From positions 4,933-68,932 of the forward strand of contig JBAZQN010000006.1 in the NCBI GenBank assembly GCA_041645165.1: a stretch of 64,000 bases of DNA, given 5' to 3'. The notes below the pieces were generated by a model. That model did no database searches and was not told the DNA's origin. It saw only the letters and a list, made by a program, of their open reading frames with translations. Source of the stretch: Patescibacteria group bacterium. Lineage in GTDB: Bacteria; Patescibacteriota; Patescibacteriia; 2-02-FULL-49-11. Below, piece after piece: positions 48,874 to 61,272 of the stretch; within the stretch, counting starts at the first letter, position 1, and the number at the start of each line of letters is the position of its first letter. The position numbers and the translations under genes are program-made.

Positions 48874-48973
48874 CTTCGAATTTTAAAATTCCAAGTTTAC
48901 CACCCGCATAAAGCGGGCTTTTTATTTATATTTATTGACATTATAGTGGTGTGTAGTAATATACCAAAAAATT

Positions 48974-49046
48974 GGCCTATAGCTCAACTGGTAGAGCAAT
49001 CCTTTAGGAAAGGATGGTTAGGGGTTCGATACCCTTTAGGCCGCCA
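48974..49046 (+). tRNA. tRNA with atypical anticodon loop UUAGGAA (nominal anticodon AGG). Identity uncertain; possible pseudo-tRNA.
   Basis: GGCCTATAGCTCAACTGGTAGAGCAATCCTTTAGGAAAGGATGGTTAGGGGTTCGATACCCTTTAGGCCGCCA. Good D- and T-arms. Acceptor has a T·T pair, position 8 is A, and position 34 is A. Confidence 0.55.
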
Positions 49047-49056
49047 AAAATAAATA

Positions 49057-49133
49057 GGCCCCGTAGCTCAATTGGTTAGAGTACCTGCTTGACATGCAGG
49101 GTGTTGGAGGTTCGAGTCCTCCCGGGTCCACCA
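49057..49133 (+). tRNA. tRNA-Val (anticodon GAC)
   Basis: GGCCCCGTAGCTCAATTGGTTAGAGTACCTGCTTGACATGCAGG…GGAGGTTCGAGTCCTCCCGGGTCCACCA. One C·U in the acceptor stem. Confidence 0.75.
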
Positions 49134-49141
49134 AAAAAACT

Positions 49142-49219
49142 GCGCCCGTAGTTCAACTGGTTAGAACAATGGCTTGGTAAGCAGTAGGTTGGGGGTTCGA
49201 ATCCCCTCGGAGCGCTCCA
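49142..49219 (+). tRNA. tRNA-Thr-like (anticodon GGU), with a bulged acceptor stem and one anticodon-stem mismatch
   Basis: GCGCCCGTAGTTCAACTGGTTAGAACAATGGCTTGGTAAGCAGTAGGTTGGGGGTTCGAATCCCCTCGGAGCGCTCCA. Confidence 0.55.
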
Positions 49220-49226
49220 TAAAGCT

Positions 49227-49303
49227 GTGCCCGTAACTCAGCAGGTTAGAGTAATCGCCTGATAAGCGGGAAGTCGTAGGTTCGAACCCTACCGGGCACA
49301 CCA
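49227..49303 (+). tRNA. tRNA-Ile (anticodon GAU)
   Basis: GTGCCCGTAACTCAGCAGGTTAGAGTAATCGCCTGATAAGCGGGAAGTCGTAGGTTCGAACCCTACCGGGCACACCA. Confidence 0.8.
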
Positions 49304-49549
49304 TACAAAAGGCCATCATTTACATGATGGCCTTAAAATTTTTTAAACCACAAACCCGCCTCATATCTGGCGGGTTCCTGATTATTACACTGAAACCGAT
49401 CTACAGTTTTCAGATTTATCTCTCTCGCATATCTTAGACTTAGCTTGAACTTTTTTCGAGCGAGAGTTCAAAGGAATTTTAAAGGAAAAAACTGAACTGA
49501 AATTTCCCAAAACCGCTTTCGGGCGGCGGCGAGGCCTCAAAATCGCATA

Positions 49550-52285
49550 TTATTGTTTAAGAATATCTCCCAGTTGCCTTATTGCCTCGCCGTAGCGCGC
49601 CCAATCACCATCCCTTTGCGCTCGAACGGCTTCCTCATACGCTCCTAAGGCTCTTCGTATACGCTCCGGAATATCTTGAGGTGGTATTCCACCTGAGGCG
49701 GACGGTTTTGTTGTCGCGGACCCTTGCGGCTTTACTCCCGCTCCACTGCCAAAAATTTTCGATAACCCCTCCTCCAGCGTCTCTTCCATGGCAATTTTAT
49801 TTTCATACGCCACAACCACCCTTTTTAACTCGGGGATTTTTCCGGCTTCGGCCTTGAGATAGAGCGGGCGCACATACAAGAGCGATTCCTCAATCGGAAT
49901 AACTAAAAGTGGGCCTTGGATTACTTGCGACCCGCCTTGACTCCAAAGCGAGATCTGCTGACTAATCACCGGGTCCTGGTTGATGCGGCCGATGATCTGC
50001 TTTGGTCCGAACACAAGCTTGTCTTTAGGAAAACGATAGACCAACAACTTGCCGTAGTTTTCTCCATCGTTACGGGCAACCATCCAGGCGGACAGGTTGT
50101 CTTTTGCGCGGGGAGTAAAAGGCAGCATCAAAATATATTCCTCTTTTTTCTCTCCCGGCAACTTCATAATAATATGCCGTGGTTGCATCGGCGGAATCCC
50201 GCTCCCACGGGACGCCCCCTCTCCTTCTGACGCAATGGCCGGAATTTCCCACTGGTCTTCTTTGTTGTAAAAAATCTGTGGATCATCCATGTGGTAGACC
50301 GAATACGCGGCAGTCTGCAGGGTAAAGATATCTTCGGGATAGCGCAAATGAGAAACAAGGTTCTCTGGAATTTCTGACATCGGTCGGAATGTTCCGGGGA
50401 AAATCGTGGCGTATGTTTTTAAAATCGGGTCCTCTGTGTCCGCTTGATAGAAAACGACACTGCCATTATACGCATCAACCACCACTTTTACCGAGTTTCT
50501 CACATAATTTACACTCTTGCCATTCAACAACAACGGTTGGGAATAGGGATAACGGTCGCTCGTGGTATAGGCATCGGCGATCCAATACACCTTGCCGTCG
50601 GCAATAACGATATAAGGGTCTCGGTCAAAGGTCAAAAACGGCGCGATTTTGGCGATTCTTTCGGCAATAGTGCGGTAATACAGAATACGACTCTCACTGG
50701 TTATGTCGTTAGACAAAAGCAGTTTAAGCGATTGGAATTTCACTGCGTAAAAGACACGCTTGATGAAAGAGTTCATCTCCACCCCACCCGTGCCTTCATA
50801 TGTTGCGTAGACATTTTCTTCGCCTTTTGGATAGTTGAACTCGAGAGATTTGGTTTTTGCGATGACGTAGTCGTTTGAAAGCTCGCCGAAGTAGATCTCA
50901 GGACGCGAGATTTTCAGTTCATCCACATCAGATTTGGGCGGCAAATCCTTAACGAATAAAACCGGCAATCCTTCCTGGGTGACTTGATTCATCGGCCCGG
51001 CCGCTATGCCATAGCCGTGCGTAAACGTCAGCCGTTCATTGATCCAGTTCCTGTTCGGCAGGCTGGCCGAAGACAACTCCCGCGGAGAGAGCATAATCTG
51101 GCGAATTTCTCCATCTATGATATAGCGATCATTATCAACTTCGGCAAACTCGTAATAAGTTCTGATTTCCTGTATCTGGGAAAAAGTTGACAAAAGGGGC
51201 TTCCTGTCCCAAAGCCGCATGTTTTTAACCGTGAGATTGTTGGCCGAGATATCAGTGCTGGTTATGGGCTTATCTCCCGAGATTTCTCGTTCCTCGATTT
51301 TATCAAGAGCAAACGCCTGACGGGTAGCGGCGATATTATACTTAATAAACGGCGTTTCTTTTACCAGCTCATTGGGGGCAACCACCAATTTTTGAACAAG
51401 GGAAGGGATTACTGCTCCCGCGAATCCCACGACAACATAAAGAGAAACTGCTCCGACAAGCAGTGACAACTTTCCCTTCCATACCCAAAAGACGACCGAA
51501 ACTGCCGCAAGTACAGCCGTAACCATTGAGATCCAAAGCATGAGTATTCTCACGGTTGCGTCTGTGTACGTCGCGCCAAATACTAAACCATCCTGACTCG
51601 CGAGCAGTGTAAAGCGAGAAAGGTAGACCCCGGCGGCAATGGTTGAGAGAATTATTGCGAGCAAGATGCCAAGATGAATTCTCGCCGCGCGTTCAATTCG
51701 CATTTGTTTAAGTAATTGTAGACTTGCGACATAAAGGCTGCCTCGCAAAAAATATATGATCGCACAGCCGATCAGCGTCAAGATAACGAGTGTTTTCGCG
51801 AGACCAAGACCCGCTTGTAAAACAGGGAGAGAGAAGACATAAAATCCGATGTCTTTATTAAAGATAGGGTCTGTCGCGCCAAAAGCCGCGCCTGAAATAA
51901 ATTTTAATACCTCCTGCCAATTGGCCGCCGCCACAAGTCCGAAAAAGAGCGCGATTGCCACGCTCAACACAACGGCCAATTTTTTAACAATGCGATTGTT
52001 CAAATCCACCGGCCGGCCGATTAACGCCTCCGGCAAAATTGCCGTCCAAGAGATTTTTGAGCGGATTGCTAAAGAGAAGTTGATAAACAAAAAAACGGCG
52101 GCAAAAATTCCCGCTACCGAAAACAACGCTATTTTAGCGATCAGAGACTTAATAAAGATTTGAGTGTAGCCAACCTCGGAGAACCACCACCAATCAGTAA
52201 CAAAGGCGACAATGCTTGAAAAAAGGATAAAGACAACAAAAAGCCCAATAAAGGAGATTCGTGTGAGGTACTTTGGAATAGTCAT
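49550..52285 (-). CDS. UPF0182-family large membrane protein
   Basis: 911 aa. N-terminal ~280 aa has 7 TM helices, followed by a large extracytoplasmic domain. Typical UPF0182 architecture. Confidence 0.7.
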   Translation of the reverse strand: MTIPKYLTRISFIGLFVVFILFSSIVAFVTDWWWFSEVGYTQIFIKSLIAKIALFSVAGIFAAVFLFINFSLAIRSKISWTAILPEALIGRPVDLNNRIVKKLAVVLSVAIALFFGLVAAANWQEVLKFISGAAFGATDPIFNKDIGFYVFSLPVLQAGLGLAKTLVILTLIGCAIIYFLRGSLYVASLQLLKQMRIERAARIHLGILLAIILSTIAAGVYLSRFTLLASQDGLVFGATYTDATVRILMLWISMVTAVLAAVSVVFWVWKGKLSLLVGAVSLYVVVGFAGAVIPSLVQKLVVAPNELVKETPFIKYNIAATRQAFALDKIEEREISGDKPITSTDISANNLTVKNMRLWDRKPLLSTFSQIQEIRTYYEFAEVDNDRYIIDGEIRQIMLSPRELSSASLPNRNWINERLTFTHGYGIAAGPMNQVTQEGLPVLFVKDLPPKSDVDELKISRPEIYFGELSNDYVIAKTKSLEFNYPKGEENVYATYEGTGGVEMNSFIKRVFYAVKFQSLKLLLSNDITSESRILYYRTIAERIAKIAPFLTFDRDPYIVIADGKVYWIADAYTTSDRYPYSQPLLLNGKSVNYVRNSVKVVVDAYNGSVVFYQADTEDPILKTYATIFPGTFRPMSEIPENLVSHLRYPEDIFTLQTAAYSVYHMDDPQIFYNKEDQWEIPAIASEGEGASRGSGIPPMQPRHIIMKLPGEKKEEYILMLPFTPRAKDNLSAWMVARNDGENYGKLLVYRFPKDKLVFGPKQIIGRINQDPVISQQISLWSQGGSQVIQGPLLVIPIEESLLYVRPLYLKAEAGKIPELKRVVVAYENKIAMEETLEEGLSKIFGSGAGVKPQGSATTKPSASGGIPPQDIPERIRRALGAYEEAVRAQRDGDWARYGEAIRQLGDILKQ

Positions 52286-52414
52286 AATGATTATATTATA
52301 GAAAATTTTTCCTCAGTTGTTAATATCCACCCGCAAGCGGCGCGACAAAGGCGATAATTAGCAGAACAATCACGGTAATGAAAATAATTCTTTTGACCTT
52401 GTCAGACATAAAAT

Positions 52415-53455
52415 TTATTGGCTTTCGCGCTCTTTATGAATCATAATATAGATTTCGAGGAAGGTAAAGAGCAGGTTTAAGACGAGAGGCCCTAATAAGA
52501 ATCCGAGAGGTCCAAAAAAGCCGATGCCGCCCAAGATAGAAAGTAGAATCAGAAATGGATGGAGCTGTGTTCCTCGTCCAACGAGCTTCGGTCCCAAAAA
52601 GTTGTCAACGAGTCCCACGGCTGTCATTCCCCAAAGCAGAAGGCCGACCGCGAAAAACATTTCTCCGCTGAAGTATAGGTAGAGAATCGCCGGAAGAAGC
52701 ACTAAAGCCGTCCCAATACCGGGGATTAACGCGGTGATTGCCGCAACACTACCCCACAGCGTCGCATTGGGAACTCCGAAGATGGCGAATCCGACCGCGG
52801 TTAGTATGCCTTGAATGAACGCCACCATAAGACTCCCTTTGATGACTGAATTAATTGCCAGCGCAAGCTTATTGAAAATTGTTTCATCGTGAATATCTTG
52901 CAGGGGGCTTAAAGCGACGACGGCCTCTTTGAGTTTGCGACCATCCTTAAACAGATAATACAGAGCGACGAGGAATATAAAGATTCCAACCATTGCTTTT
53001 GCAACATTCGCAAAAAGAGGTCCGAGGTGCTGGAGTAACCAGATTAATCCCTGTTTTAAGTACGGGTTAATATCAATGGAGAATTCTATTGGCACAGGAG
53101 AAAATCTCGTGAGGTTCTGCATGGCATCATTCACACCGCGAGAGAGATCCGTTATGTCGTCGCTTTGTGTAAGAAAAGAGTGAAGCTGTGTTGCTTCCTG
53201 AAAAATCTGTATGCCTAAAAATGCGAGAGGTACGATAACAACGATAAGAACAGAGATGGTGGCGAGAAGCGCCGCCAGACCCCTTCGCTCGCGCGTAATG
53301 GTGAGCGTCTTTTTGTGGAATGGCGCAAAGACGGTTGCAAAAACCATGGCCAAGATAAGCGCATAAAGAAAAGGCTTAAAAATGAAAAGGGCAAGGACAA
53401 AAATTCCTGCGAGTAGAATGAGTAAAAAATAAAATTCTGATTTTTGGTGTTTCAT
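52415..53455 (-). CDS. AI-2E family transporter (PerM/UPF0118-like permease)
   Basis: 8 TM. Annotated start at MKHQKSEFYFLLILLAGIF… The tracked ORF has an extra 21-aa lead-in. Confidence 0.7.
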   Translation of the reverse strand: MKHQKSEFYFLLILLAGIFVLALFIFKPFLYALILAMVFATVFAPFHKKTLTITRERRGLAALLATISVLIVVIVPLAFLGIQIFQEATQLHSFLTQSDDITDLSRGVNDAMQNLTRFSPVPIEFSIDINPYLKQGLIWLLQHLGPLFANVAKAMVGIFIFLVALYYLFKDGRKLKEAVVALSPLQDIHDETIFNKLALAINSVIKGSLMVAFIQGILTAVGFAIFGVPNATLWGSVAAITALIPGIGTALVLLPAILYLYFSGEMFFAVGLLLWGMTAVGLVDNFLGPKLVGRGTQLHPFLILLSILGGIGFFGPLGFLLGPLVLNLLFTFLEIYIMIHKERESQ

Positions 53456-53607
53456 GTTATTTTTTCTTCCAAAATTTAAATTTATTAAAAAGTAAAATTC
53501 GCCAGCCCAATAATTCAAGACCGATAATTGCTAGCCATGAACCGGGAGTGAGCGGAGTAAAAAAAGCGGCAAGTCCTATTAGCACCAAAACAACGCCGAT
53601 GGGTTTC

Positions 53608-56325
53608 TTAATTTTTTGCATTTTCATTGCTTGTTTCTCGTCTTCGTAACAGTCCTTTCGTTATTTCCAATATCGGCACCACCGTTGCCGCCGCGCCCGC
53701 AACTATTGCCCAATCAGCGTACGATAAAGCCACGGTCTTAAACGGCACTTGAAGAAAAGGTACATAGATGACGAGCGCCAATAGAAGTAGCTCCCACGCA
53801 ATAGCGAGGTTCAGCCACCGGTTGGCAAATGGTCGGCGCAATACCGAATAGTGATCCGAACGGAAACTGTATGCCTTGAAAAATTGAATGAGCACCAGCG
53901 AGACAAATACCATCGCCATACTCGCGACCAAATCCCGACCAGACTGCAAAGCCCAGACAAACAGACCGACATTGACGAGTGTAGACCATACCCCGCCCGT
54001 GACCATCAGCGTAACAACGGAGCGGCTGAAAATTCCGCCAGTCAATTTGCGCGGGGAACGTCGCATGATATTAGCCTCGGGCGGATCCACGGCCAGCGCC
54101 AAAGCAGGCAGGCCATCCGTGGCAAGATTCACGTATAAAATCTGCACTGCTGAGAGTGGTAAGGGCAATCCCATAAGCGACGTCACCACCATCAGTCCGA
54201 TTTCGCCGATGTTTGATGAAATCAAATACATGAGGTATTTTTTTATATTGCTAAAGATAATCCGCCCCTCCTCCACCGCGGCAACAATGGAGGCAAAGTT
54301 ATCATCGGTCAATATCATGGCCGCCGCTTCTCTGGAGACATCAGTACCAGTAATACCCATGGCAATGCCAATATTGGCTTTCTTGATGGCCGGAGCGTCG
54401 TTGACGCCGTCGCCCGTCATAGCCACAATATGGCCGCGACGTTGCAGGGCCTCTACCACTCGCAGTTTGTGTTCGGGCGATACCCGAGCGCAGACGGCGA
54501 TGTGCTCAATACTTTGTTCTAGCTCGTTATCGCTCATCGCGGAGAGATCGCTGCCAGTAATCACTCGGCCACCGAGGGGCAAAAGGGTCAGTTCCCGCGC
54601 AATTGCCTTAGCCGTCACCGGGTGGTCACCGGTGATCATCATGAGTTTAATTCCGGCCTGTCGACAAAGCTCAATGGCCTGTTTCGCCTCCAGCCGGGGC
54701 GGATCAATCATGCCAAAGAGGCCCAGGAAAATCATATCTCGCTGCGCCAGCTCAATATCAGTGGCCGGAACATACGCCACTCCAATGACTCGAAGAGCTT
54801 CCTCGCCAAAGGTCTGCGTAGCGGCAAGGATAGCAGTGCGCACTTCCTTGGTGAGCGGTTGCACTTCTCCGCTTGTTTGGTAACGAGTGCAGGAGGCGAG
54901 AATAATTTCAGCCGCTCCCTTCCCGTACGCCACCGTGCCAAGGGGCGATTGGTGTAGTGTGGTCATTCGTTTACTTTCGGAACTAAAGGGGATTTCGGCC
55001 ACGCGCCGAAACTGCTCATCCATGAATTCTTTTTGCAGTCCCGCTTTTTCTGCCGCCACGACCAACGCTCCCTCGGTGGGGTCGCCTTTCAAATCCCAAA
55101 CGCCATCGGTTTTCGCAAGGCGAGCGTCCGAAGAGAGCGCGGCTGCTTGGAGTAAAAGCCGCAGGTTGTCCGTCAACGGATAGGGCTGACCTTGCCATAG
55201 AAATTCTCCTCTTGGCTCATATCCGCTGCCGCTCACCTCCAGCACAATTTCGCCATTTAAAAAAATTTTTCGCACGGTCATTTCGTCTTTGGTAAGCGTA
55301 CCTGTTTTATCCGAGCAGATAATGCTTGTGCATCCCAGGGTTTCTACCGCCGGCAAATGCCGCACCAGGGCGTTCCGTTTGACCATTCGTTGCACGCCAA
55401 TGGCGAGCGAGATCGTCACCACCGCGGGAAGCGCCTCAGGCACTACCGCGACGGCGAGTGCAATACCAAAGACTATCATCTCAAGTAGCGGTTGCCCTCG
55501 GAATAACCCGAGCAGTACGATACCCGCCACCACCGCAAAAGCGGCTTTGGTCAGGGTTTTCGCCACGCGGTCCAAATTTTTTGCTAAAGGAGTTTCTTCC
55601 TGCTCCACACTTTGGAGCATCCCCGCAATACGGCCAAATTCTGTCTGCATACCAGTGGCAGTAACTATGGCTCGTCCACGACCGTAGATAGCACTGGTAC
55701 CTGCAAAAACCATATTGCGACGATCCCCGAGTGGAGATCCTTCCTCACAGGTAAGCTCACTATGTTTTTCTACAGGTACAGATTCACCGGTTAATGCCGC
55801 TTCTTCCGCCTTTAGATTCACTGCTTCAATTAAACGAGCGTCAGCCGGGAAGCGATCGCCGGTCGCAAGCACAATAATGTCGCCTGGCACGAGCTCTTGG
55901 GCAGGCACTTCTCGCTCCAATCCATCGCGGAAAACCAGAGCTATTGGTGCGGCGAGCCTGCGCAGCGCTTCAAGCGCCCGCCCGGCGCGCCACTCTTGAA
56001 CAAAACCCAGGACTACGGCAAAGAGTATAATCACCCCAATAGCGATCGCTTCCACCACATGGCCCAAAATACCAGAGAGCGCCGTGGCGACAAGTAGAAT
56101 AAGAATTAAGGAATTCTTGAACTGATGAAGAAAGAGTGTAAATGGCGAAATTTGGGCGGCGGCAATAAGCTGGTTGGGACCATACTGTTGAAGACGAGTT
56201 TGTGCTTCAACATCAGATAATCCAGTAGTTCCGTCGGTCTTGAGTTCAGCGATAGCAGTGGCAGCGGTAAGGGCATGCCAGGGACGGCGGTTTGCTTCAT
56301 TATTGCCTAAATTCTTATGATGCAT
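53608..56325 (-). CDS. cation-transporting P-type ATPase (second P2-type paralog)
   Basis: ICSDKTGTLT, MITGDHPVTAKAIA, MTGDGVNDAPAIKKANIGIAMG. 905 aa. Confidence 0.9.
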   Translation of the reverse strand: MHHKNLGNNEANRRPWHALTAATAIAELKTDGTTGLSDVEAQTRLQQYGPNQLIAAAQISPFTLFLHQFKNSLILILLVATALSGILGHVVEAIAIGVIILFAVVLGFVQEWRAGRALEALRRLAAPIALVFRDGLEREVPAQELVPGDIIVLATGDRFPADARLIEAVNLKAEEAALTGESVPVEKHSELTCEEGSPLGDRRNMVFAGTSAIYGRGRAIVTATGMQTEFGRIAGMLQSVEQEETPLAKNLDRVAKTLTKAAFAVVAGIVLLGLFRGQPLLEMIVFGIALAVAVVPEALPAVVTISLAIGVQRMVKRNALVRHLPAVETLGCTSIICSDKTGTLTKDEMTVRKIFLNGEIVLEVSGSGYEPRGEFLWQGQPYPLTDNLRLLLQAAALSSDARLAKTDGVWDLKGDPTEGALVVAAEKAGLQKEFMDEQFRRVAEIPFSSESKRMTTLHQSPLGTVAYGKGAAEIILASCTRYQTSGEVQPLTKEVRTAILAATQTFGEEALRVIGVAYVPATDIELAQRDMIFLGLFGMIDPPRLEAKQAIELCRQAGIKLMMITGDHPVTAKAIARELTLLPLGGRVITGSDLSAMSDNELEQSIEHIAVCARVSPEHKLRVVEALQRRGHIVAMTGDGVNDAPAIKKANIGIAMGITGTDVSREAAAMILTDDNFASIVAAVEEGRIIFSNIKKYLMYLISSNIGEIGLMVVTSLMGLPLPLSAVQILYVNLATDGLPALALAVDPPEANIMRRSPRKLTGGIFSRSVVTLMVTGGVWSTLVNVGLFVWALQSGRDLVASMAMVFVSLVLIQFFKAYSFRSDHYSVLRRPFANRWLNLAIAWELLLLALVIYVPFLQVPFKTVALSYADWAIVAGAAATVVPILEITKGLLRRRETSNENAKN

Positions 56326-56327
56326 AG

Positions 56328-56546
56328 TTAGTTTTTGATTAAATCATCAACGCCAACATCCAACGCTTTGGCGATTCTCGTTAGTGTTTCAATAGTTGGG
56401 TTTGGGTTTGCTCCCGATTCCACTGTAACCACGGTATTAAGCGACAAATCCGCCAGCTTGGACAGGCGATCTTGGGAAATACCTTTGTCCTGCCGGATTT
56501 TCTTCAAGTTTTTGGCTATTTTTGAACCTTGATTATTATTTGACAT
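56328..56546 (-). CDS. XRE-family helix-turn-helix transcriptional regulator
   Basis: 72 aa. …LKKIRQDKGISQDRLSKLADLSLNTVVTVESG…. Confidence 0.75.
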   Translation of the reverse strand: MSNNNQGSKIAKNLKKIRQDKGISQDRLSKLADLSLNTVVTVESGANPNPTIETLTRIAKALDVGVDDLIKN

Positions 56547-57026
56547 AGGTCTTTGGAAGATATACCATTATATTGTATAGGTTAAAAAGTATCCTTTTAC
56601 TTTCATCAATTACAATGATAACAAATTTCAAAAGACTTGTCCAAACAAAAGGGAGTTCCTACTTGTCGCCCGCGCACGGGAAGGGTGGGGCAAGGGCGAC
56701 TATTCTTTTTCTTTTGGACCCGCCGCCCGAAAAATCCGCTGGGGGTTTCCAGCAGGTGGGCAAAAAGGAAGGGGGTTGGGGGGAAGGAATTTTTGCCCAT
56801 CTGCTCTCCGCGCCGAAGGCGCGGCTGAGGTGGGAGCGGCTCCGCTCTCTTGCTCCTTCAAGAGAAGCAAAGCAAAACATTTTTCAATTCCTTTTAGAAG
56901 AAAAAGGGTCGCGCACCAAAATTGAAAAAAGAGAAAAATGTTTTGCTTCGCGCCGCCGTCAGGCGGGCGGAGCCGCAGGACGGGTCAGTTTCGTTCAAAG
57001 TAGGTTCGCACTGCGTTCAGTAATTG

Positions 57027-57175
57027 CGACCAAGTTAGACATTGACAGTTTTCGGAAGAAGGTACGCGCTCGCTTCGCTCGCGCGCTGGGGGGATTTTAT
57101 TCTGATTTTCCGCCACAATCCGCCATTCGCCCGACCAATCCCAGCCGACTTTTTTGGAGAGCAGGCGGCGGTTCG
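57027..57175. repeat. perfect 149-bp inverted repeat, left copy (IR-L), immediately upstream of the serine recombinase gene
   Basis: Reverse complement of 57027-57175 is identical to 58661-58809. Confidence 0.85.
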
Positions 57176-57291
57176 GGTGCGCGAAGCGCACAACAAATGA
57201 AATTTGTATCCAATTTTTTCCTTTCCGCCAAAGGCGGAATACGAAGCCAGTTTTTTAATCCCGCGCTTTACGGCCAAAGGCGACTAACAAT

Positions 57292-58887
57292 ATGAACACC
57301 AAATACTTTTTATACGCTCGCAAATCAACCGAAGACGAAGAACGGCAAGTGATGAGTATTGAAGCGCAGCTTACGGAGTTGGCTGAATTTGCCAAGCGAG
57401 AAAATATTGAAATTGCCGAAACATTTATTGAATCAAAAAGCGCAAAGAAGCCAGGGCGAGAAGTGTTTAACGAGATGATGAGCAGAGTTCAGGAAAGTAA
57501 AACTACGGTGGGACTTCTCGCGTGGCACCCGGATCGTCTCGCCCGCAACAGCGTTGATGGCGGTTTGATAATTTACTCCATAGACACCGCCAAAATCGCT
57601 TCTTTGCGCTTTCCCACATTTTGGTTTGAGCCAACTCCGCAAGGGCTTTTTATGCTCCAAGTCGCCTTTGGCCAATCAAAATATTATTCCGACAATTTGT
57701 CGGAAAATGTAAAGCGCGGGATTCGCCAAAAACTCAGGCGGGGGGAGTGGCCCGGCCTTGCGCCGTTTGGGTATGTGAACAATCCGAAAACACGAACGAT
57801 TGAGCCAGACCCAACAAAAGCGAGAGTTATCAAAAAAGCGTTTGAAGAATACGCGCAAGGCCGTCATACACTTTTGTCTTTAGGTGAACGCCTGAGTTTT
57901 TGGGGCGTGGTGAGCGGAACCGGAAAACCGCTTTGCAAAGCAACGCTCCAACGAATGCTTACCAATAAAGCGCATCTCGGTTTAATTGTCCATAACGACG
58001 AAACTTACGAGGGCGGTTTTCCAGCAATTGTTTCCAGAGCGACTTTTGAGAAAGTGCAGGAAGTGTTAAAGAGCCGAGCCAAGCCGCGTCATTCTAAAAA
58101 GCGGCATAACTTCCCATTTACCGGACTGCTTACTTGCGGCGAGTGCGGCGCGGCTATTACGGCACAATACGCGCATGGACACGGTGGAACTTACAAATAC
58201 TATCGTTGCACCAAACGGCTTGGCTCGTGTTCGCAAAGTTATTTGCGCGAGGACTTACTCACCGAACAACTGAAAATAGAAATCTCAAAAGTCGCTCTCT
58301 GCGAAGACTCGAAAGAAAAGATGCTGGCGCAAGTGGAAGTGTGGGAAAAAGAAAATATCCAGTCTTCGCAATCTTTCGCCCAAAATTTGGAAAAGGAAAT
58401 CAAGGAAACCGAACAAAAACTTGATAGATTGGTAAACGCCTTTTTGGACGGAAGCATAGAAAAAGAAACCTACCTTACCAAAAAGGATGAACTCATCACA
58501 ACCAAAACAGACCTCCAGCAAAGGAAGTCTGATTTTGGGCGAAAGGGAAACAATTGGATCGAACCTTTGCGCGAATGGATTTTAGCCGCTCACCACGCGG
58601 AAAAACTGGCTTCGTCAAACGAATTTGATGAAATCAAATCGTTTGTTGAAAAAATTGGAACGAACCGCCGCCTGCTCTCCAAAAAAGTCGGCTGGGATTG
58701 GTCGGGCGAATGGCGGATTGTGGCGGAAAATCAGAATAAAATCCCCCCAGCGCGCGAGCGAAGCGAGCGCGTACCTTCTTCCGAAAACTGTCAATGTCTA
58801 ACTTGGTCGGGGCGGGGAGAATCGAACTCCCGCTACAAGCACCCCATGCTCGCGTACTACCATTATACTACGCCCCGTAAATTGTAG
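57292..58887 (+). CDS. large serine recombinase (resolvase/invertase N-domain + recombinase domain + zinc ribbon)
   Basis: YARKSTEDEERQ…SIEAQ (catalytic Ser), …HPDRLARN…, Zn ribbon CGECGAAI…YYRC. The last ~28 codons read through tRNA-Pro (antisense), so the true stop is probably earlier or overlapping. Confidence 0.85.
   Translation: MNTKYFLYARKSTEDEERQVMSIEAQLTELAEFAKRENIEIAETFIESKSAKKPGREVFNEMMSRVQESKTTVGLLAWHPDRLARNSVDGGLIIYSIDTAKIASLRFPTFWFEPTPQGLFMLQVAFGQSKYYSDNLSENVKRGIRQKLRRGEWPGLAPFGYVNNPKTRTIEPDPTKARVIKKAFEEYAQGRHTLLSLGERLSFWGVVSGTGKPLCKATLQRMLTNKAHLGLIVHNDETYEGGFPAIVSRATFEKVQEVLKSRAKPRHSKKRHNFPFTGLLTCGECGAAITAQYAHGHGGTYKYYRCTKRLGSCSQSYLREDLLTEQLKIEISKVALCEDSKEKMLAQVEVWEKENIQSSQSFAQNLEKEIKETEQKLDRLVNAFLDGSIEKETYLTKKDELITTKTDLQQRKSDFGRKGNNWIEPLREWILAAHHAEKLASSNEFDEIKSFVEKIGTNRRLLSKKVGWDWSGEWRIVAENQNKIPPARERSERVPSSENCQCLTWSGRGESNSRYKHPMLAYYHYTTPRKL
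58661..58809. repeat. perfect 149-bp inverted repeat, right copy (IR-R). Encodes the C-terminal ~48 aa of the recombinase and includes the last 6 nt of tRNA-Pro.
   Basis: cgaaccgccgcctgctctccaaaaaagtcggctgggattggtcgggcgaatggcgg…ctgtcaatgtctaacttggtcg. Confidence 0.85.
58804..58877 (-). tRNA. tRNA-Pro (anticodon GGG)
   Basis: CGGGGCGTAGTATAATGGTAGTACGCGAGCATGGGGTGCTTGTAGCGGGAGTTCGATTCTCCCCGCCCCGACCA. Confidence 0.8.
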
Positions 58888-58987
58888 CCCCGAAATCTAC
58901 TTCGGGGCCATGCATGCCTAACTACCGCCTTGATATCACACTGTGATATCAAGACCTACACCCCGTCAAATTGTAGTCTCGAAAACT
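58866..58987. repeat. att-like region: ~30-bp direct repeats (58868-58896 and 58946-58975) flanking a perfect 25-bp palindrome (CTTGATATCACACTGTGATATCAAG)
   Basis: ctacgccccgtaaattgtagccccgaaa vs ctacaccccgtcaaattgtagtctcgaaa. DR1 overlaps the 5' end of tRNA-Pro. Confidence 0.6.
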
Positions 58988-59673
58988 AAACTACTCAATG
59001 ACTTTATGACTTATTGACTTATTGACTAACACAAATGGCTCCAAAGGCTATTAGTAGGCAAGTCAGTCCCTCGCAAGTCAATCGGGCCACGTCTTCCATC
59101 AGCTGGCCTCGCACGAGGCTCGGTCAATCCGATACAAGATTCTCTCCCAAAGGAGAAAGGCCGCTGGTTGCTCTCAACCCGATACCGCAGTATCAAGGAA
59201 ATCAAGCTGACCGACGAAAATTACTTGACGAACCACTTAATCCTACTTATGAGCGCTAAAAGGAGCCACCTCTATTATACCACACCGTCAAGGCTCTTCA
59301 AGGTAAACAATTCCCTCAAACTCCAGCTTCGTAAGGTAGAGAAAATGTCCCCTCCTCTACGAAGGACTGCACTGCGAGTCAGAAGCGGTGCAGAGGGAGG
59401 TCTCCTGGGGATAACTGGACTGGACACCTTACTCACTATCCCCTACCATAGAAATACTATATGCAAATAACACCCAACCAAACCATGAAGATGAACAAGA
59501 TGAAGATGTCCTACCCTCAAGGGACTGGTTGGTGTTATGCATAAGGTTTAAATAAAAATTAGGAATACACCTCCAGCCCCAGAGCTGGTTTTTTTGTTTT
59601 TACATAATCACAGAAGCCAGTTTAGGCCATTGATACGCCAAAAACACAAAACGTTCATTGACAAGGAGAAGGA

Positions 59674-60129
59674 ATGAAAAAAGTTATTACATGGGTGATA
59701 GGATTTATCCTTTCACCTCTAAGCTTTTGGAACGATTTATTTATAAACGTTCCAATAAGCTGGTTCGTTGCTTGGCCGGCGGCACTCATATATCGGCCTG
59801 CATTCCCATTCGTATTTTCGGTTGCATATATCGCGACCAACGTGCTGGGAATGCGCATGATGGACACGGCGGTCCATCAAAAAAACAATGGCGTTGTTAC
59901 ATGGGCCAACGCCATCGGCTGTGTGGTGTTACTCGCAGCCGCCAGCTTGGGCTGGATCCCGCTTCCGTTACTCTTTGTCACTGCTTGTGTGGTGGCAAAT
60001 ATGATCGGCGCGATCATTTACCAGATCGCGGGAAATAAAAAGAGGGTCGAACTGTGCATGACCCTTGTTTACACCGCTCTTATAGTAGGAGCGGTATTCA
60101 TGGAATGGATTCCAATACCCACTCCTTAA
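59674..60129 (+). CDS. hypothetical small polytopic membrane protein
   Basis: 151 aa with 4 hydrophobic helices. Confidence 0.5.
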   Translation: MKKVITWVIGFILSPLSFWNDLFINVPISWFVAWPAALIYRPAFPFVFSVAYIATNVLGMRMMDTAVHQKNNGVVTWANAIGCVVLLAAASLGWIPLPLLFVTACVVANMIGAIIYQIAGNKKRVELCMTLVYTALIVGAVFMEWIPIPTP

Positions 60130-61137: not shown

Positions 61138-61272
61138 GAAATCCTAAACACTAAACTCTAAACCCTAAACAAATCTAAAATCCAAATATCAAAATCCAAA
61201 ATGTAAATGTAAAATCTATAAATTTTAATCTATCATTTTGATTTTTGCATTTTGGATTTTACATTCCTCCCC
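61138..61272. repeat. family E low-complexity palindromic spacer
   Basis: aaatcctaaacactaaactctaaaccctaaacaaatctaaaatccaaatatcaaaatccaaaatg…ttttgatttttgcattttggatttt. Confidence 0.6.

Follow-up and report, generated by a model that had tools for sequence, protein, structure and literature searches.

A tRNA-Pro island in a Patescibacteria group bacterium with an integrase gene that probably spans attP and with a probable second, inverted attP in its interior

The perfect inverted repeat that encloses a large serine recombinase gene beside tRNA-Pro(GGG) in the DNA analyzed here (the window, 64,000 nucleotides of contig JBAZQN010000006.1 from a Patescibacteria group bacterium) is probably best explained overall as part of a tRNA-Pro island whose integrase gene spans the attachment site attP and which carries a further, inverted attP inside. 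On this explanation a serine integrase would have placed 9.38 kb of DNA into the 3' end of tRNA-Pro(GGG), with the crossover lying in C71-G72-A73 and the terminal CCA supplied by the incoming element. As for the anatomy of the island, we consider it highly probable that the two repeat copies are P' arms of attachment sites, one in attL and one in the internal inverted attP. The positions of all parts are given in Table 1.

Table 1. Parts of the island and of its insertion site (window coordinates)
Feature	Position	Strand	Basis and remarks
Whole integrated island	49425..58809	.	9.38 kb counting both direct core copies; absent from contigs L086/L087
Far-end crossover core (attR junction, host DNA downstream of tRNA/island)	49425..49427	+	TCG on + strand, i.e. 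CGA in tRNA sense; empty-site contigs
P arm of attR at the far end (tail-arm copy, diverged)	49428..49460	+	TGAAC at offset 19-23 from core, TTAGAC at 7-12
UPF0182 membrane protein, 911 aa, cargo	49550..52285	-	Pfam PF03699, E = 3.6e-296; within insertion
AI-2E family transporter, 367 aa, cargo	52415..53518	-	Pfam PF01594
P-type cation ATPase, 905 aa, cargo	53608..56325	-	Pfam E1-E2_ATPase, Cation_ATPase_N/C; start 3 nt past XRE stop codon
XRE/Cro-type HTH regulator, 72 aa, conserved part of element	56328..56546	-	Pfam HTH_3; homologues at same position in at least 16 related loci
Hairpin-rich region H between tail and XRE	56547..56984	-	RNA fold z = -7.1 (56547-56990)
Tail (Z arm), putative P arm of internal attP	56985..57026	-	In frame with left repeat copy: native integrase ending QLLNAVRTYFERN + stop
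Core (CGA) of putative internal, inverted, intact attP	57027..57029	-	Trinucleotide identical to attL, attR and empty attB
Left arm of inverted repeat (X')	57027..57175	-	Core + CCA + putative P' arm of internal attP
Spacer S upstream of integrase start	57176..57291	+	Small GC hairpins; homologous in L001-L003
Large serine integrase ORF, 531 aa	57292..58887	+	Residues 1-506 integrase; last 25 codons antisense tRNA-Pro
Right arm of inverted repeat (X)	58661..58809	+	Integrase gene 3' end; outer end is island P' arm + CCA + core, i.e. putative attL
Host tRNA-Pro(GGG), integration target	58804..58877	-	ARAGORN; CCA (58804-58806) from island; crossover in C71-G72-A73 (58807-58809)

A repeat search returned two arms of 149 nt each, 100% complementary to one another and 1485 nt apart. 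A perfect repeat of this length cannot have arisen by chance, and a sensitive BLAST search found no third copy within the 64-kb window. The first-pass annotation, made from the sequence alone, had described both the perfect repeat and the overlap of its right arm with the last six nucleotides of tRNA-Pro(GGG), and these descriptions are borne out: the placements by ARAGORN and Rfam agree that the shared nucleotides are C71-G72-A73 plus CCA (CGACCA), with Rfam setting the tRNA at 58807-58877, that is, leaving the CCA out. The enzyme is indeed a complete large serine recombinase with the Pfam domains Resolvase (PF00239, E = 8.5e-22, residues 6-153), Recombinase (PF07508) and Zn_ribbon_recom (PF13408), and an XRE regulator and a hairpin-rich region do lie upstream, as had been stated. 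The C-terminus, on the other hand, had been put inside the right repeat. In fact, the reading frame continues through the whole antisense tRNA and ends beyond the repeat, at a TAA in positions 58885-58887.

The extent of the inserted DNA is evident from two related metagenome contigs (L086 and L087) that represent the empty site. They lack window positions 49428-58806, share 79-95% identity with the window in the flanks on either side, and have a tRNA-Pro(GGG) whose 3' end runs directly into the homologue of window positions 49377-49277. The insertion of 9.38 kb is therefore located between tRNA position 73 and the downstream terminator of the tRNA. Of the possibilities raised in the first-pass annotation, this comparison turns the "one edge of an integrated element" into a full island; an IS-like element with 149-bp terminal inverted repeats does not agree with it, as the inserted unit measures 9.4 kb instead of 1.78 kb and is present in the window only once. 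The trinucleotide CGA is common to attL, attR, the internal attP and the empty attB; for tRNA-Pro the core dinucleotide is G72-A73. At the island ends this 3-nt core is the only direct repeat, as expected of a serine integrase, and the longer tRNA fragment at the far end that is the signature of tyrosine integrases is not seen. Integration has left the tRNA intact (59.4 bits in Rfam), with the CCA directly after A73 coming from the island. In the empty-site contig L086 the tRNA ends ...CCCCGA followed by GAAAG and has no encoded CCA, which weakens the earlier reading of the left repeat copy as bearing an orphan tRNA 3' fragment; the six nucleotides rather appear to be the shared crossover core and an element-borne CCA within an intact internal attP. 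Upon excision, a circle junction is predicted in which 49428... is joined to ...58806, i.e. ...AAGTCTAAGATATG-CGA-CCAAGTTAGAC.... A further candidate, in which X joined to the tail is the attP used here and the tail is expected beside host DNA, was rejected for the window, the far end of which has a different, diverged arm. No long inverted repeat between this far-end arm and the internal arm was detectable in the window. The GC content is 0.48 for the island overall and 0.53 for the gene of the P-type ATPase.

The half-sites point to the nature of the internal site. In 31 of 36 loci, the window included, a YGAAY motif occurs in both flanks: on the tRNA side, as part of the T-loop, its offset is 14, and on the tail side 19. 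As GTTCG, the motif stands at -20 in the T-loop and at -25 in the tail arm. The internal tail arm of the window has the motif as CGAAC at offset 19, and the offset in the far-end arm is equal. It has been reported that the motif contacted by the zinc-ribbon domain is shifted by 5 bp between attB and attP half-sites and lies closer to the center in attB (PMC3783163); the 5-bp shift of YGAAY between the tail and tRNA flanks matches this published signature. Within attB, only the tRNA half contains a recognizable motif, and the T-loop, which is universal, apparently serves as a DNA motif for the integrase. By its half-site signature the internal site is of the attP type, and recombination at it would be predicted. 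An internal site of attL-like character, with a tail arm imitating that of the tRNA, was rejected, as the motif is at the attP-type and not at the attB-type offset.

The integrase reading frame itself appears to span attP: the X segment continues into antisense tRNA in the window and into a conserved tail in what would be the non-integrated forms. The last two integrase residues are Trp-Ser, encoded by TGG TCG at the crossover core. A minus-strand ORF (56985-57191) covers the tail and the left repeat copy. The native tail is the C-terminus in 22 of the 120 best homologues, and clusters at 90% identity hold integrases in which one and the same X segment runs into the native tail or into various antisense tRNAs. 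Protein-coding constraint acts on the tail: its codon-position entropy amounts to 5.0/4.1/9.2 at positions 1/2/3, and synonymous and non-synonymous differences stand at 845:817 in frame versus 307:1195 and 277:1274 in the shifted frames. In the main body of the protein, the catalytic motif Y8-A9-R10-K11-S12, invariant in the family alignment, is retained, and a structure model shows, at low confidence, long helices at residues 338-440 for the embedded coiled coil. An AlphaFold2 model based on 22 native-tail homologues (mean pLDDT 59.5, pTM 0.29) is too poor for interpreting the X-encoded segment or the role of the tail. Spacer S presumably holds the promoter and the ribosome-binding site of the integrase gene.

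Exact look-up of the 531-aa protein gave no record, and no relatives were found in IMG/VR. Weak but significant sequence matches exist to SPbeta SprA/YokA (E = 5e-9) and to the A118 integrase. Among the plasmid proteins of PLSDB and the phage proteins of INPHARED the best matches listed are only 24-30% identical, and all are below 60%, so that the family is not annotated in cultured references. A protein search with a threshold of E <= 0.001 retrieved 6777 proteins, and in species-representative genomes 528 loci could be confirmed. Elements with 70-95% protein identity reside in MAGs assigned to Patescibacteria, Omnitrophota, Planctomycetota, Bacteroidales and Gammaproteobacteria.

The layout of the window recurs in this family. 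In 84 related loci the target is tRNA-Pro 44 times and another tRNA 20 times, and in about 60 of the 84 the integrase gene is flanked by repeats of 90-200 nt. Most of these repeats are 98-100% identical, and the right arm ends 3-6 nt within the antisense tRNA. These about 60 loci share the inner boundary GGCGGTTCG and the order of parts, though the repeated sequence differs from locus to locus. They stem from many phyla and include a closed genome (CP060229.1) and three MAG contigs (L031, L076 and L079) that are presumed to be long-read assemblies on the basis of their record names only. A second perfect repeat, made up of tail and H (150-435 nt) and abutting the first, surrounds the cargo in at least 19 loci; the cargo usually consists of restriction-modification genes. 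In these loci the P arm of attR is the same as the internal tail arm, and the internal site therefore equals the attP that would be rebuilt from the island ends. Unlike in these canonical relatives, a second long inverted repeat was not found in the window. Because of its absence and of the divergence of the far-end arm, the excised circle of the window island would give an integrase that ends in SHILDLA and not in the native tail, and the island may be decaying.

With regard to orientation, the integrase reads into the tRNA in 64 chromosome-linked loci and away from it in 3-4, and integrases with either ending occur within the 90% clusters, orientation across repeats longer than k being unreliable in short-read assemblies. 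In the closed genome and the presumed long-read MAG contigs (4/4) the tRNA-proximal integrase is present in the tRNA-fused orientation only. Two contigs have informative arrangements. In L106, the integrase module has attP on both sides, which is how the excised form should look; as the two arms are only 88% identical, the assembly is unambiguous. In L041 the module is located between two different tRNA-Pro genes, an arrangement that would be the expected product of recombination between the internal attP and a second attB. A search for terminal direct repeats, indicative of closed circles, among the native-tail contigs L001, L084, L085, L105, L106 and L107 was negative.

The following sequence of events can be put forward. 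The right repeat copy would serve as attL and, at the same time, form the 3' terminus of the gene for the integrase; upon integration, the native last 13 codons would have been exchanged for antisense tRNA. The left copy and the tail would together form a second complete attP, inverted and situated between the integrase module and the module of XRE gene and cargo, in which the native ending is preserved. The copies would stay identical by recombining with each other. The first-pass annotation had suggested ongoing gene conversion, and this fits the pattern in the family, in which the two arms of one locus are identical but those of different loci cannot be aligned with each other; as a mechanism, gene conversion is inferred. 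Crossing-over between the copies, or action of the integrase on attL and the internal attP, could flip the integrase segment of 1.5 kb, and an invertible module, likewise proposed earlier, is plausible for the window. The integrase would regain its native C-terminus once the segment is flipped or, for canonical relatives, once the circle is excised. The tRNA-fused form, which is that of nearly all chromosomal copies, would then be quiescent until flipping or excision re-arms the enzyme, and such a latch would work without a separate directionality factor. Large serine integrases depend for excision on a separate recombination directionality factor. In the relatives of 3-5 kb, the smallest ones, which contain only integrase, XRE and cargo, no candidate for such a factor was identified.

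The steps of this proposal deserve different degrees of trust. That the integrase segment flips at all seems rather likely, if not by a wide margin, and that flipping functions as a latch is a tentative suggestion that we would not expect to hold. Slightly more doubtful still is the generalization that tRNA-targeting serine integrases steer their own directionality without a separate factor, that the flip is brought about by integrase or RecA, that the tRNA-fused protein keeps the island locked, that a conserved tail of 11-13 residues, encoded by the P-arm site to which the enzyme itself binds, re-arms the enzyme and that the internal attP also stacks islands or rearranges chromosomes between tRNA genes. 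Recombination of attL with attP is not known from canonical large serine integrases, and flipping driven by the integrase is therefore an assumption. RecA-mediated gene conversion alone is expected to yield identical inverted repeats of 100-200 nt, so the identity by itself does not prove a function.

On a simpler view, the integrase is an ordinary one and the layout a functionless by-product, left over from tandem or nested integrations or from an old inverted duplication. It would persist through gene conversion and because the integrase has to bind the outer 30 nt in any case. RecA-type conversion would be enough to keep repeats of 150 nt identical, the far-end arm of the window has decayed, and tandem or composite arrangements do exist in the family: L085 contains cargo modules that each end in a stub of tail, core and X', the far end of the cargo in L081 abuts a second integrase of only 22% identity, and L067 has islands in two adjacent tRNA genes. 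We nevertheless regard a mere by-product as unlikely, since inner boundary and part order are constant in about 60 loci of many phyla in spite of differing repeats, since the tail is under coding constraint in its internal copy, and since orientation is strongly biased where neutral flipping would give 50:50.

The position of the recombinase gene within a segment bounded by inverted sites is reminiscent of Hin, and inversion might turn tRNA read-through or the XRE-cargo operon on and off instead of affecting the integrase itself. The restriction-modification cargo of relatives is bounded by a perfect inverted repeat as well, and both relative orientations of integrase and cargo are encountered among contigs (L084/L085 versus L105/L106). 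Yet wherever an XRE gene is detectable in a chromosome-linked locus (16 of 16), it adjoins the internal site and has the same orientation, so that integrated copies give no sign of cargo flipping. The enzyme, at more than 500 aa and with insertion junctions that are proven, is a large serine integrase and not a small invertase, and the length of the repeats is well beyond that of a recombination site. A phase switch of this kind is accordingly improbable in our eyes. Hin, Gin and Cin are invertases of about 190 aa that use 26-bp sites and a Fis-bound enhancer and do not integrate. They resemble the window in that a recombinase gene is tied to a segment bounded by inverted sites; they differ from the integrase of about 500 aa with its mapped insertion junctions and its repeats of 90-435 nt, and the 531-aa ORF with large-serine-recombinase domains is not the small recombinase with C-terminal HTH of such switches.

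Two remaining readings are rejected. An IS-like element of 1.78 kb (57027-58809), mobilized by its serine recombinase through 149-bp terminal inverted repeats, is very improbable: the module does occur in other contexts, such as between the two tRNA-Pro genes of L041 and on many contigs of 1.9-2.1 kb, but the empty site reveals 9.38 kb of inserted DNA and not the repeat-bounded 1.78 kb, the tail, H and XRE to the left of the left arm are element DNA conserved in other hosts, serine recombination at inverted sites cannot excise a segment, and breaks in assembly at the repeats account for the short contigs, which end at k-1 or k nt of an arm. Metagenome assemblers do mishandle inverted repeats, the related contig L028 resembles a fold-back walk, and an arm of L004 is interrupted by a scaffold gap. 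A fold-back or chimeric join at the repeat is nevertheless scarcely credible, given the same architecture in more than 50 independent assemblies from different assemblers, among them the closed chromosome L081 and the presumed long-read contigs L031, L076 and L079, and given X'-S and tail'-X' junctions that require real molecules when only 6 nt are shared with the tRNA.

If the preferred reading of a tRNA-Pro island with an attP-spanning integrase gene and an internal inverted attP is compared with established systems, the phage-type large serine integrases (A118/LI, SPbeta SprA, phiC31, Bxb1) are alike in their domains (Resolvase, Recombinase and zinc ribbon with coiled coil), in the short crossover core and in the motif that lies 5 bp further out in attP-type half-sites. 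The window integrase is at most about 30% identical to any of those in the plasmid and phage collections searched, and its family differs in that tRNA 3' ends are targeted, the gene crosses attP and a second inverted attP is kept inside. Use of tRNA genes by serine integrases has been called unreported in 2014 (PMC4383910) and again in 2020 (PMC7192596), when it was still regarded as needing proof. In Mx8, attP resides within the integrase coding sequence and integration gives the integrase (IntP/IntX) a new 3' end (PMC6070905), and Mx8 and SSV have been described alike (PMC4383910). An attP inside the integrase gene is thus shared with the window family, whereas the enzymes of the Mx8/SSV type are tyrosine recombinases and that of the window is a serine recombinase. 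We know of no inverted spare copy of gene 3' end and attP for Mx8 or SSV integrases.

SCCmec and related cassette chromosomes are small non-phage islands that are mobilized by large serine recombinases (CcrAB/CcrC), sit at the 3' end of a conserved gene, form tandem or composite arrays and carry accessory or defense cargo. The window family is similar as regards large-serine-recombinase islands at a gene 3' end, arrays (here L085, L067 and L081) and defense cargo. SCCmec, in contrast, targets rlmH and not a tRNA, its terminal repeats are short, its recombinase gene is not placed between long inverted repeats, and its recombinases have no close sequence relationship to the window integrase. The yeast 2-micron plasmid has Flp, a tyrosine recombinase, acting on FRT sites in inverted repeats of 599 bp; the plasmid replicates and amplifies its copy number through inversion. 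For canonical relatives the predicted excised circle would resemble it, with two long inverted repeats that contain sites and two unique regions, one of which encodes the recombinase. Such repeats are present in canonical relatives, where the abutting pairs share the core and L106 has attP on both sides; the second repeat of the window has decayed. The cargo proteins that were scanned included no evident product of a replication gene.

To the left of the internal site, homology between elements extends to about 56322. In relatives, XRE precedes the restriction-modification cargo in the manner of a controller protein. Region H is homologous to sequence downstream of the integrase in L001 and is part of the second inverted repeat in canonical relatives. 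A promoter scan indicated a promoter-like site for XRE at 56643-56615. Rfam matches are limited to tRNAs, both at the gathering score over the whole window and at E <= 1 in 56300-59700, and no known RNA family was found in H.

The literature searched contains no described match for the layout, which combines an attP-crossing integrase gene, an apparently intact inverted attP inside the island and perfect repeats bounding both modules. The integrases described here form a very large family that targets tRNA 3' ends, with the T-loop as apparent DNA motif. From the layout one can derive a testable scheme by which a serine integrase would be controlled with no directionality factor, which would be of interest for the engineering of genome-writing tools, and the internal attP, if it works as proposed, would permit several islands to accumulate at one tRNA and, now and then, chromosomal rearrangements between tRNA genes. 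Tiny elements of 3-9 kb with restriction-modification or other defense genes may have spread unusually widely among uncultivated bacteria by horizontal transfer, with mis-binning as a possible contribution. As a side observation, the repeats break or mis-orient metagenome assemblies beside tRNA genes.

The perfect 149-bp inverted repeat proposed in the first-pass annotation was confirmed, its two arms (X and X') being 100% complementary and separated by 1485 nt, and no further copy of the 149-nt repeat was found elsewhere in the window. The recombinase gene between the arms is intact, and its product comprises Resolvase, Recombinase and Zn_ribbon_recom domains. The right arm overlaps tRNA-Pro at the 3' end of this gene, as had been stated, but the reading frame does not end within the repeat and instead traverses the entire antisense tRNA. 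Since the Rfam boundary of the tRNA, which excludes CCA, lies at 58807, the end of the right arm corresponds to C71-G72-A73 plus CCA. Beside the left arm, the minus strand offers 13 further in-frame codons, i.e. a native integrase ending, here termed the tail.

Features of the window and sequences of attachment sites
Feature	Position	Strand	Sequence or remark
Left arm of inverted repeat	57027-57175		149 nt
Right arm of inverted repeat	58661-58809		149 nt
Large serine recombinase ORF	57292-58887		531 aa
tRNA-Pro(GGG)	58804-58877	minus	
ORF with native tail	56985-57191	minus	13 codons QLLNAVRTYFERN, then stop
Hairpin-rich region H	56547-56990		between tail and XRE gene
Perfect palindrome pair in H	56870-56885 / 56933-56948		16 nt
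Inserted island	49425-58809		9.38 kb, both cores counted
Empty attB			tRNA sense: CCCGGCACCC-CGA-GAAAGACAAATTTGAAAAT
Window attL			tRNA sense: CTCCCCGCCC-CGA-CCAAGTTAGACATTGACAG
Window attR			tRNA sense: AAGTCTAAGATATG-CGA-GAGAGATAAATCTGAAAAC
Direct repeat directly upstream of tRNA-Pro 5' end	58879-58899 / 58968-58988		21 nt, 86% identical: AAATTGTAGCCCCGAAATCTA / AAATTGTAGTCTCGAAAACTA

An empty site was found on metagenome contigs L086 and L087, which stem from a relative of the host and were retrieved with the neighbouring NAD(P)HX dehydratase (79-95% nucleotide identity to the window in homologous stretches). There, ~24 nt separate tRNA-Pro(GGG) from the counterpart of window 49377-49277, beyond which the sequence resumes at 49048 and runs leftward; the entire window segment from ~49428 to 58806 is missing. 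The junction sequences therefore define the insertion listed in the table. Of the readings offered in the first-pass annotation, the edge of an integrated element holds, the right repeat being the edge of this 9.4-kb island; an IS-like element is rejected and an invertible module is a possibility only. Its domains and the logic of its attachment sites identify the enzyme as a large serine integrase. It inserted the island at tRNA position 71-73, and its gene crosses attP. The crossover is located in C71-G72-A73 of the tRNA, and the CCA now following the tRNA is island-derived. The order of parts in the island, from the tRNA inward, is integrase gene (in antisense orientation relative to the tRNA), spacer S (116 nt), second repeat copy, 13-codon tail, H, and genes for an XRE protein, a P-type ATPase, an AI-2E transporter and a UPF0182 protein. 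In the far-end arm of the island the key positions are retained (TGAAC at offset 19-23), a long repeat is absent and the tail is no longer encoded. The window island is a larger, atypical member of its family with a far end that is possibly decaying.

In serine integrases, according to structural work (PMC3783163), attB half-sites carry the zinc-ribbon-domain motif 5 bp nearer the centre than attP half-sites do. The tRNA flank carries YGAAY, the antisense of T-loop GTTCR, at offset 14 from the repeat end and the tail flank an invariant CGAAC at offset 19. In 31 of 36 loci, the window among them, these two offsets differ by exactly 5, which identifies the tail arm as a P-type and the tRNA as a B-type half-site. 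The motif of the latter appears to be the universal T-loop, which would account for the use of many different tRNAs. The preference for tRNA-Pro would fit the core CGA, G72-A73 after a C1:G72 pair being characteristic of bacterial tRNA-Pro. The host-side half of attB showed no recognisable motif in the empty-site contigs or at the junctions of two related loci (L032, L040). As targets of serine integrases, tRNA genes were described as unknown in 2014 (PMC4383910), and in 2020 such use was said to have no earlier report and still to require proof (PMC7192596).

A protein search with the integrase yielded 6777 matches at E <= 0.001, the best 120 of which share 67-92% identity with the query and often reside on contigs of only ~2 kb. 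Among species-representative genomes 528 loci were confirmed by a scan, and the best 80 were retrieved. Going by record titles only, the hosts are assigned to Patescibacteria (many classes), Omnitrophota, Planctomycetia, Bacteroidales, Gammaproteobacteria, Actinomycetota, Ignavibacteria and others. In ~60 of 84 loci the integrase gene lies between inverted repeats of 90-200 nt that are mostly 98-100% identical. The right arm terminates 3-6 nt inside the antisense tRNA 3' end, the target being tRNA-Pro in 44 loci and a tRNA for Gln, Ala, Trp, Glu, Lys, Arg, Val, Asp, His, Phe or Leu in 20. The layout also occurs in a closed chromosome (CP060229.1, locus L081) and in three MAG contigs (L031, L076, L079) whose long-read origin is presumed from record names alone. 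Many related contigs begin or end within a repeat arm, k-1 or k nucleotides in, which accounts for the surplus of short contigs. Within the gene X varies most, and it cannot be aligned between the window and locus L002, though the arms are identical within each locus; the inner repeat boundary GGCGGTTCG is kept across loci. This combination amounts to concerted evolution of the repeat arms. The ~49 repeat-encoded residues (window 58661-58803) are hypervariable among elements with integrases otherwise 80-90% identical, and despite this the X reading frame is open in all homologues inspected. AlphaFold modelled the X-encoded stretch with pLDDT mostly < 50, and the model was poor overall.

At least 19 loci with sufficient flank possess a second perfect inverted repeat (tail plus H, 150-435 nt) around the cargo, which adjoins the first at the core. 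In L032 and L040 its outer copy meets AT-rich or terminator-like host DNA at TGG-TCG. In tRNA sense, the canonical structure is tRNA / X'-integrase'-S'-X / tail-H-cargo-H'-tail' / host, so that attL is tRNA/X' and attR is tail'/host. The internal X/tail junction is identical to the attP expected from rejoining both island ends, in inverted orientation, and the island keeps an intact inverted attP inside. The cargo behind XRE in relatives consists mostly of restriction-modification systems and Abi-like ATPases. H, which in canonical relatives belongs to the second inverted repeat, folds far more stably than shuffled sequence (z = -7.1) and contains several long GC hairpins; it may act as DNA (operators, recombination accessory sites) or as RNA.

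Variation among 24 distinct tail sequences falls mainly on third codon positions (entropy 5.0, 4.1 and 9.2 for positions 1, 2 and 3), with synonymous:non-synonymous counts of 845:817 in frame and 307:1195 and 277:1274 in the other two frames. From this in-frame coding signal it follows that integrase-X-tail is an expressed form, its tail being encoded by the enzyme's own predicted binding site. The native tail is under selection. Among the best 120 homologues, 22 have the tail ending and 83 the antisense tRNA ending, and 90%-identity clusters hold both endings on the same X. All native-tail proteins with a contig size returned lie on contigs of <= 10.8 kb. The tRNA-fused orientation is present in 64 chromosome-linked loci, and only in L028, L054 and L060 is the integrase gene directly preceded by a tRNA in sense orientation. 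This strong chromosomal excess suggests that the tRNA-fused orientation is the stable state and probably inactive.

In two loci the arms are diverged and the assembly is unambiguous. L106 has tail'-CGA-X' to the left and X-TCG-tail to the right of the integrase module (arms 88% identical), i.e. two inverted attP sites, as predicted for an excised element. In L041 (941-2936) the integrase module lies between face-to-face genes for tRNA-Pro(GGG) and tRNA-Pro(CGG), and the arms are identical over the inner ~100 nt and diverged over the outer ~60 nt. This layout is the expected outcome of recombination between the internal attP and a second attB, and it would fit a rearrangement of the chromosome through the internal attP. 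Among native-tail contigs, XRE directly follows the integrase in L084 and L085; in L105 and L106 the cargo far end follows and XRE is distal, which is the predicted product of excision of a window-type island.

We propose that the arms recombine and that gene conversion maintains their identity. The 1.5-kb segment would be flipped by crossing-over, or possibly through integrase action at attL and the internal attP, and flipping would restore the native integrase ending; the excised circle of canonical members would provide this ending in both integrase orientations. The arrangement might tentatively be regarded as a mobility latch without a separate directionality factor, in which the tRNA-fused integrase is quiescent and flipping or excision re-arms the native-tail form. 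According to the main rival explanation, which we consider unlikely, the internal attP is a tolerated relic.

Among solved integrases, SPbeta SprA (E = 5e-9) and the A118 integrase are only distant relatives of the window enzyme, and no close relatives were found in plasmid, phage or IMG/VR collections. Integrase genes spanning attP are already known for Mx8 and SSV (Mx8: PMC6070905; Mx8 and SSV: PMC4383910), which resemble the window element in this respect but encode tyrosine integrases. In form alone, the predicted two-repeat circle is similar to the yeast 2-micron plasmid. Of the known non-phage islands mobilised by large serine recombinases, SCC elements come closest. Neither an internal inverted attP nor an integrase gene between such repeats is described in the literature searched (full text, incomplete coverage). 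The island is of a known kind, a serine-integrase island, with an apparently new architecture; it is noteworthy for its use of a tRNA as target, for how widespread the family is and for a testable idea of self-regulation.

In L081 (800-2512 and 2463-2688), a closed Nomurabacteria chromosome, a second serine integrase (22% identity to the first) adjoins the cargo far end and takes its last 13 codons, EILTLARTYFEQN, from the second-repeat arm; a P-arm-encoded tail is therefore common to distant integrase lineages. L085 (5647-5965, 6937-7283) contains tandem modules, where two more cargo blocks each terminate in H'-tail'-CGA and a short stub similar to X'. Separate islands occupy adjacent tRNA-Ser and tRNA-Ala genes in locus L067 (2393-7527); tRNA clusters seem to be places where islands build up.

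The non-coding stretch 59023-59311, which lies a short way upstream of tRNA-Pro(GGG), is 94-95% identical to L086/L087, whereas the coding DNA beside it is merely ~81% identical. Its RNA fold gives z = -2.7 on the minus and z = -0.9 on the plus strand, and an Rfam match is absent at E <= 1; the stretch could represent a regulatory region or a small RNA not described so far. A tRNA-Pro with the anticodon AGG, unusual for bacteria, is encoded within 48973-49303 and kept in L086/L087; the window tRNAs Val, Thr and Ile (49057-49303) are absent from this relative, apparently because they were gained or lost between tRNA 3' ends of similar sequence. Between the genes for NAD(P)HX dehydratase and NDK, an AT-rich imperfect palindrome (61172-61265; 47-nt arms, 74% complementary) is probably a bidirectional terminator or promoter region.
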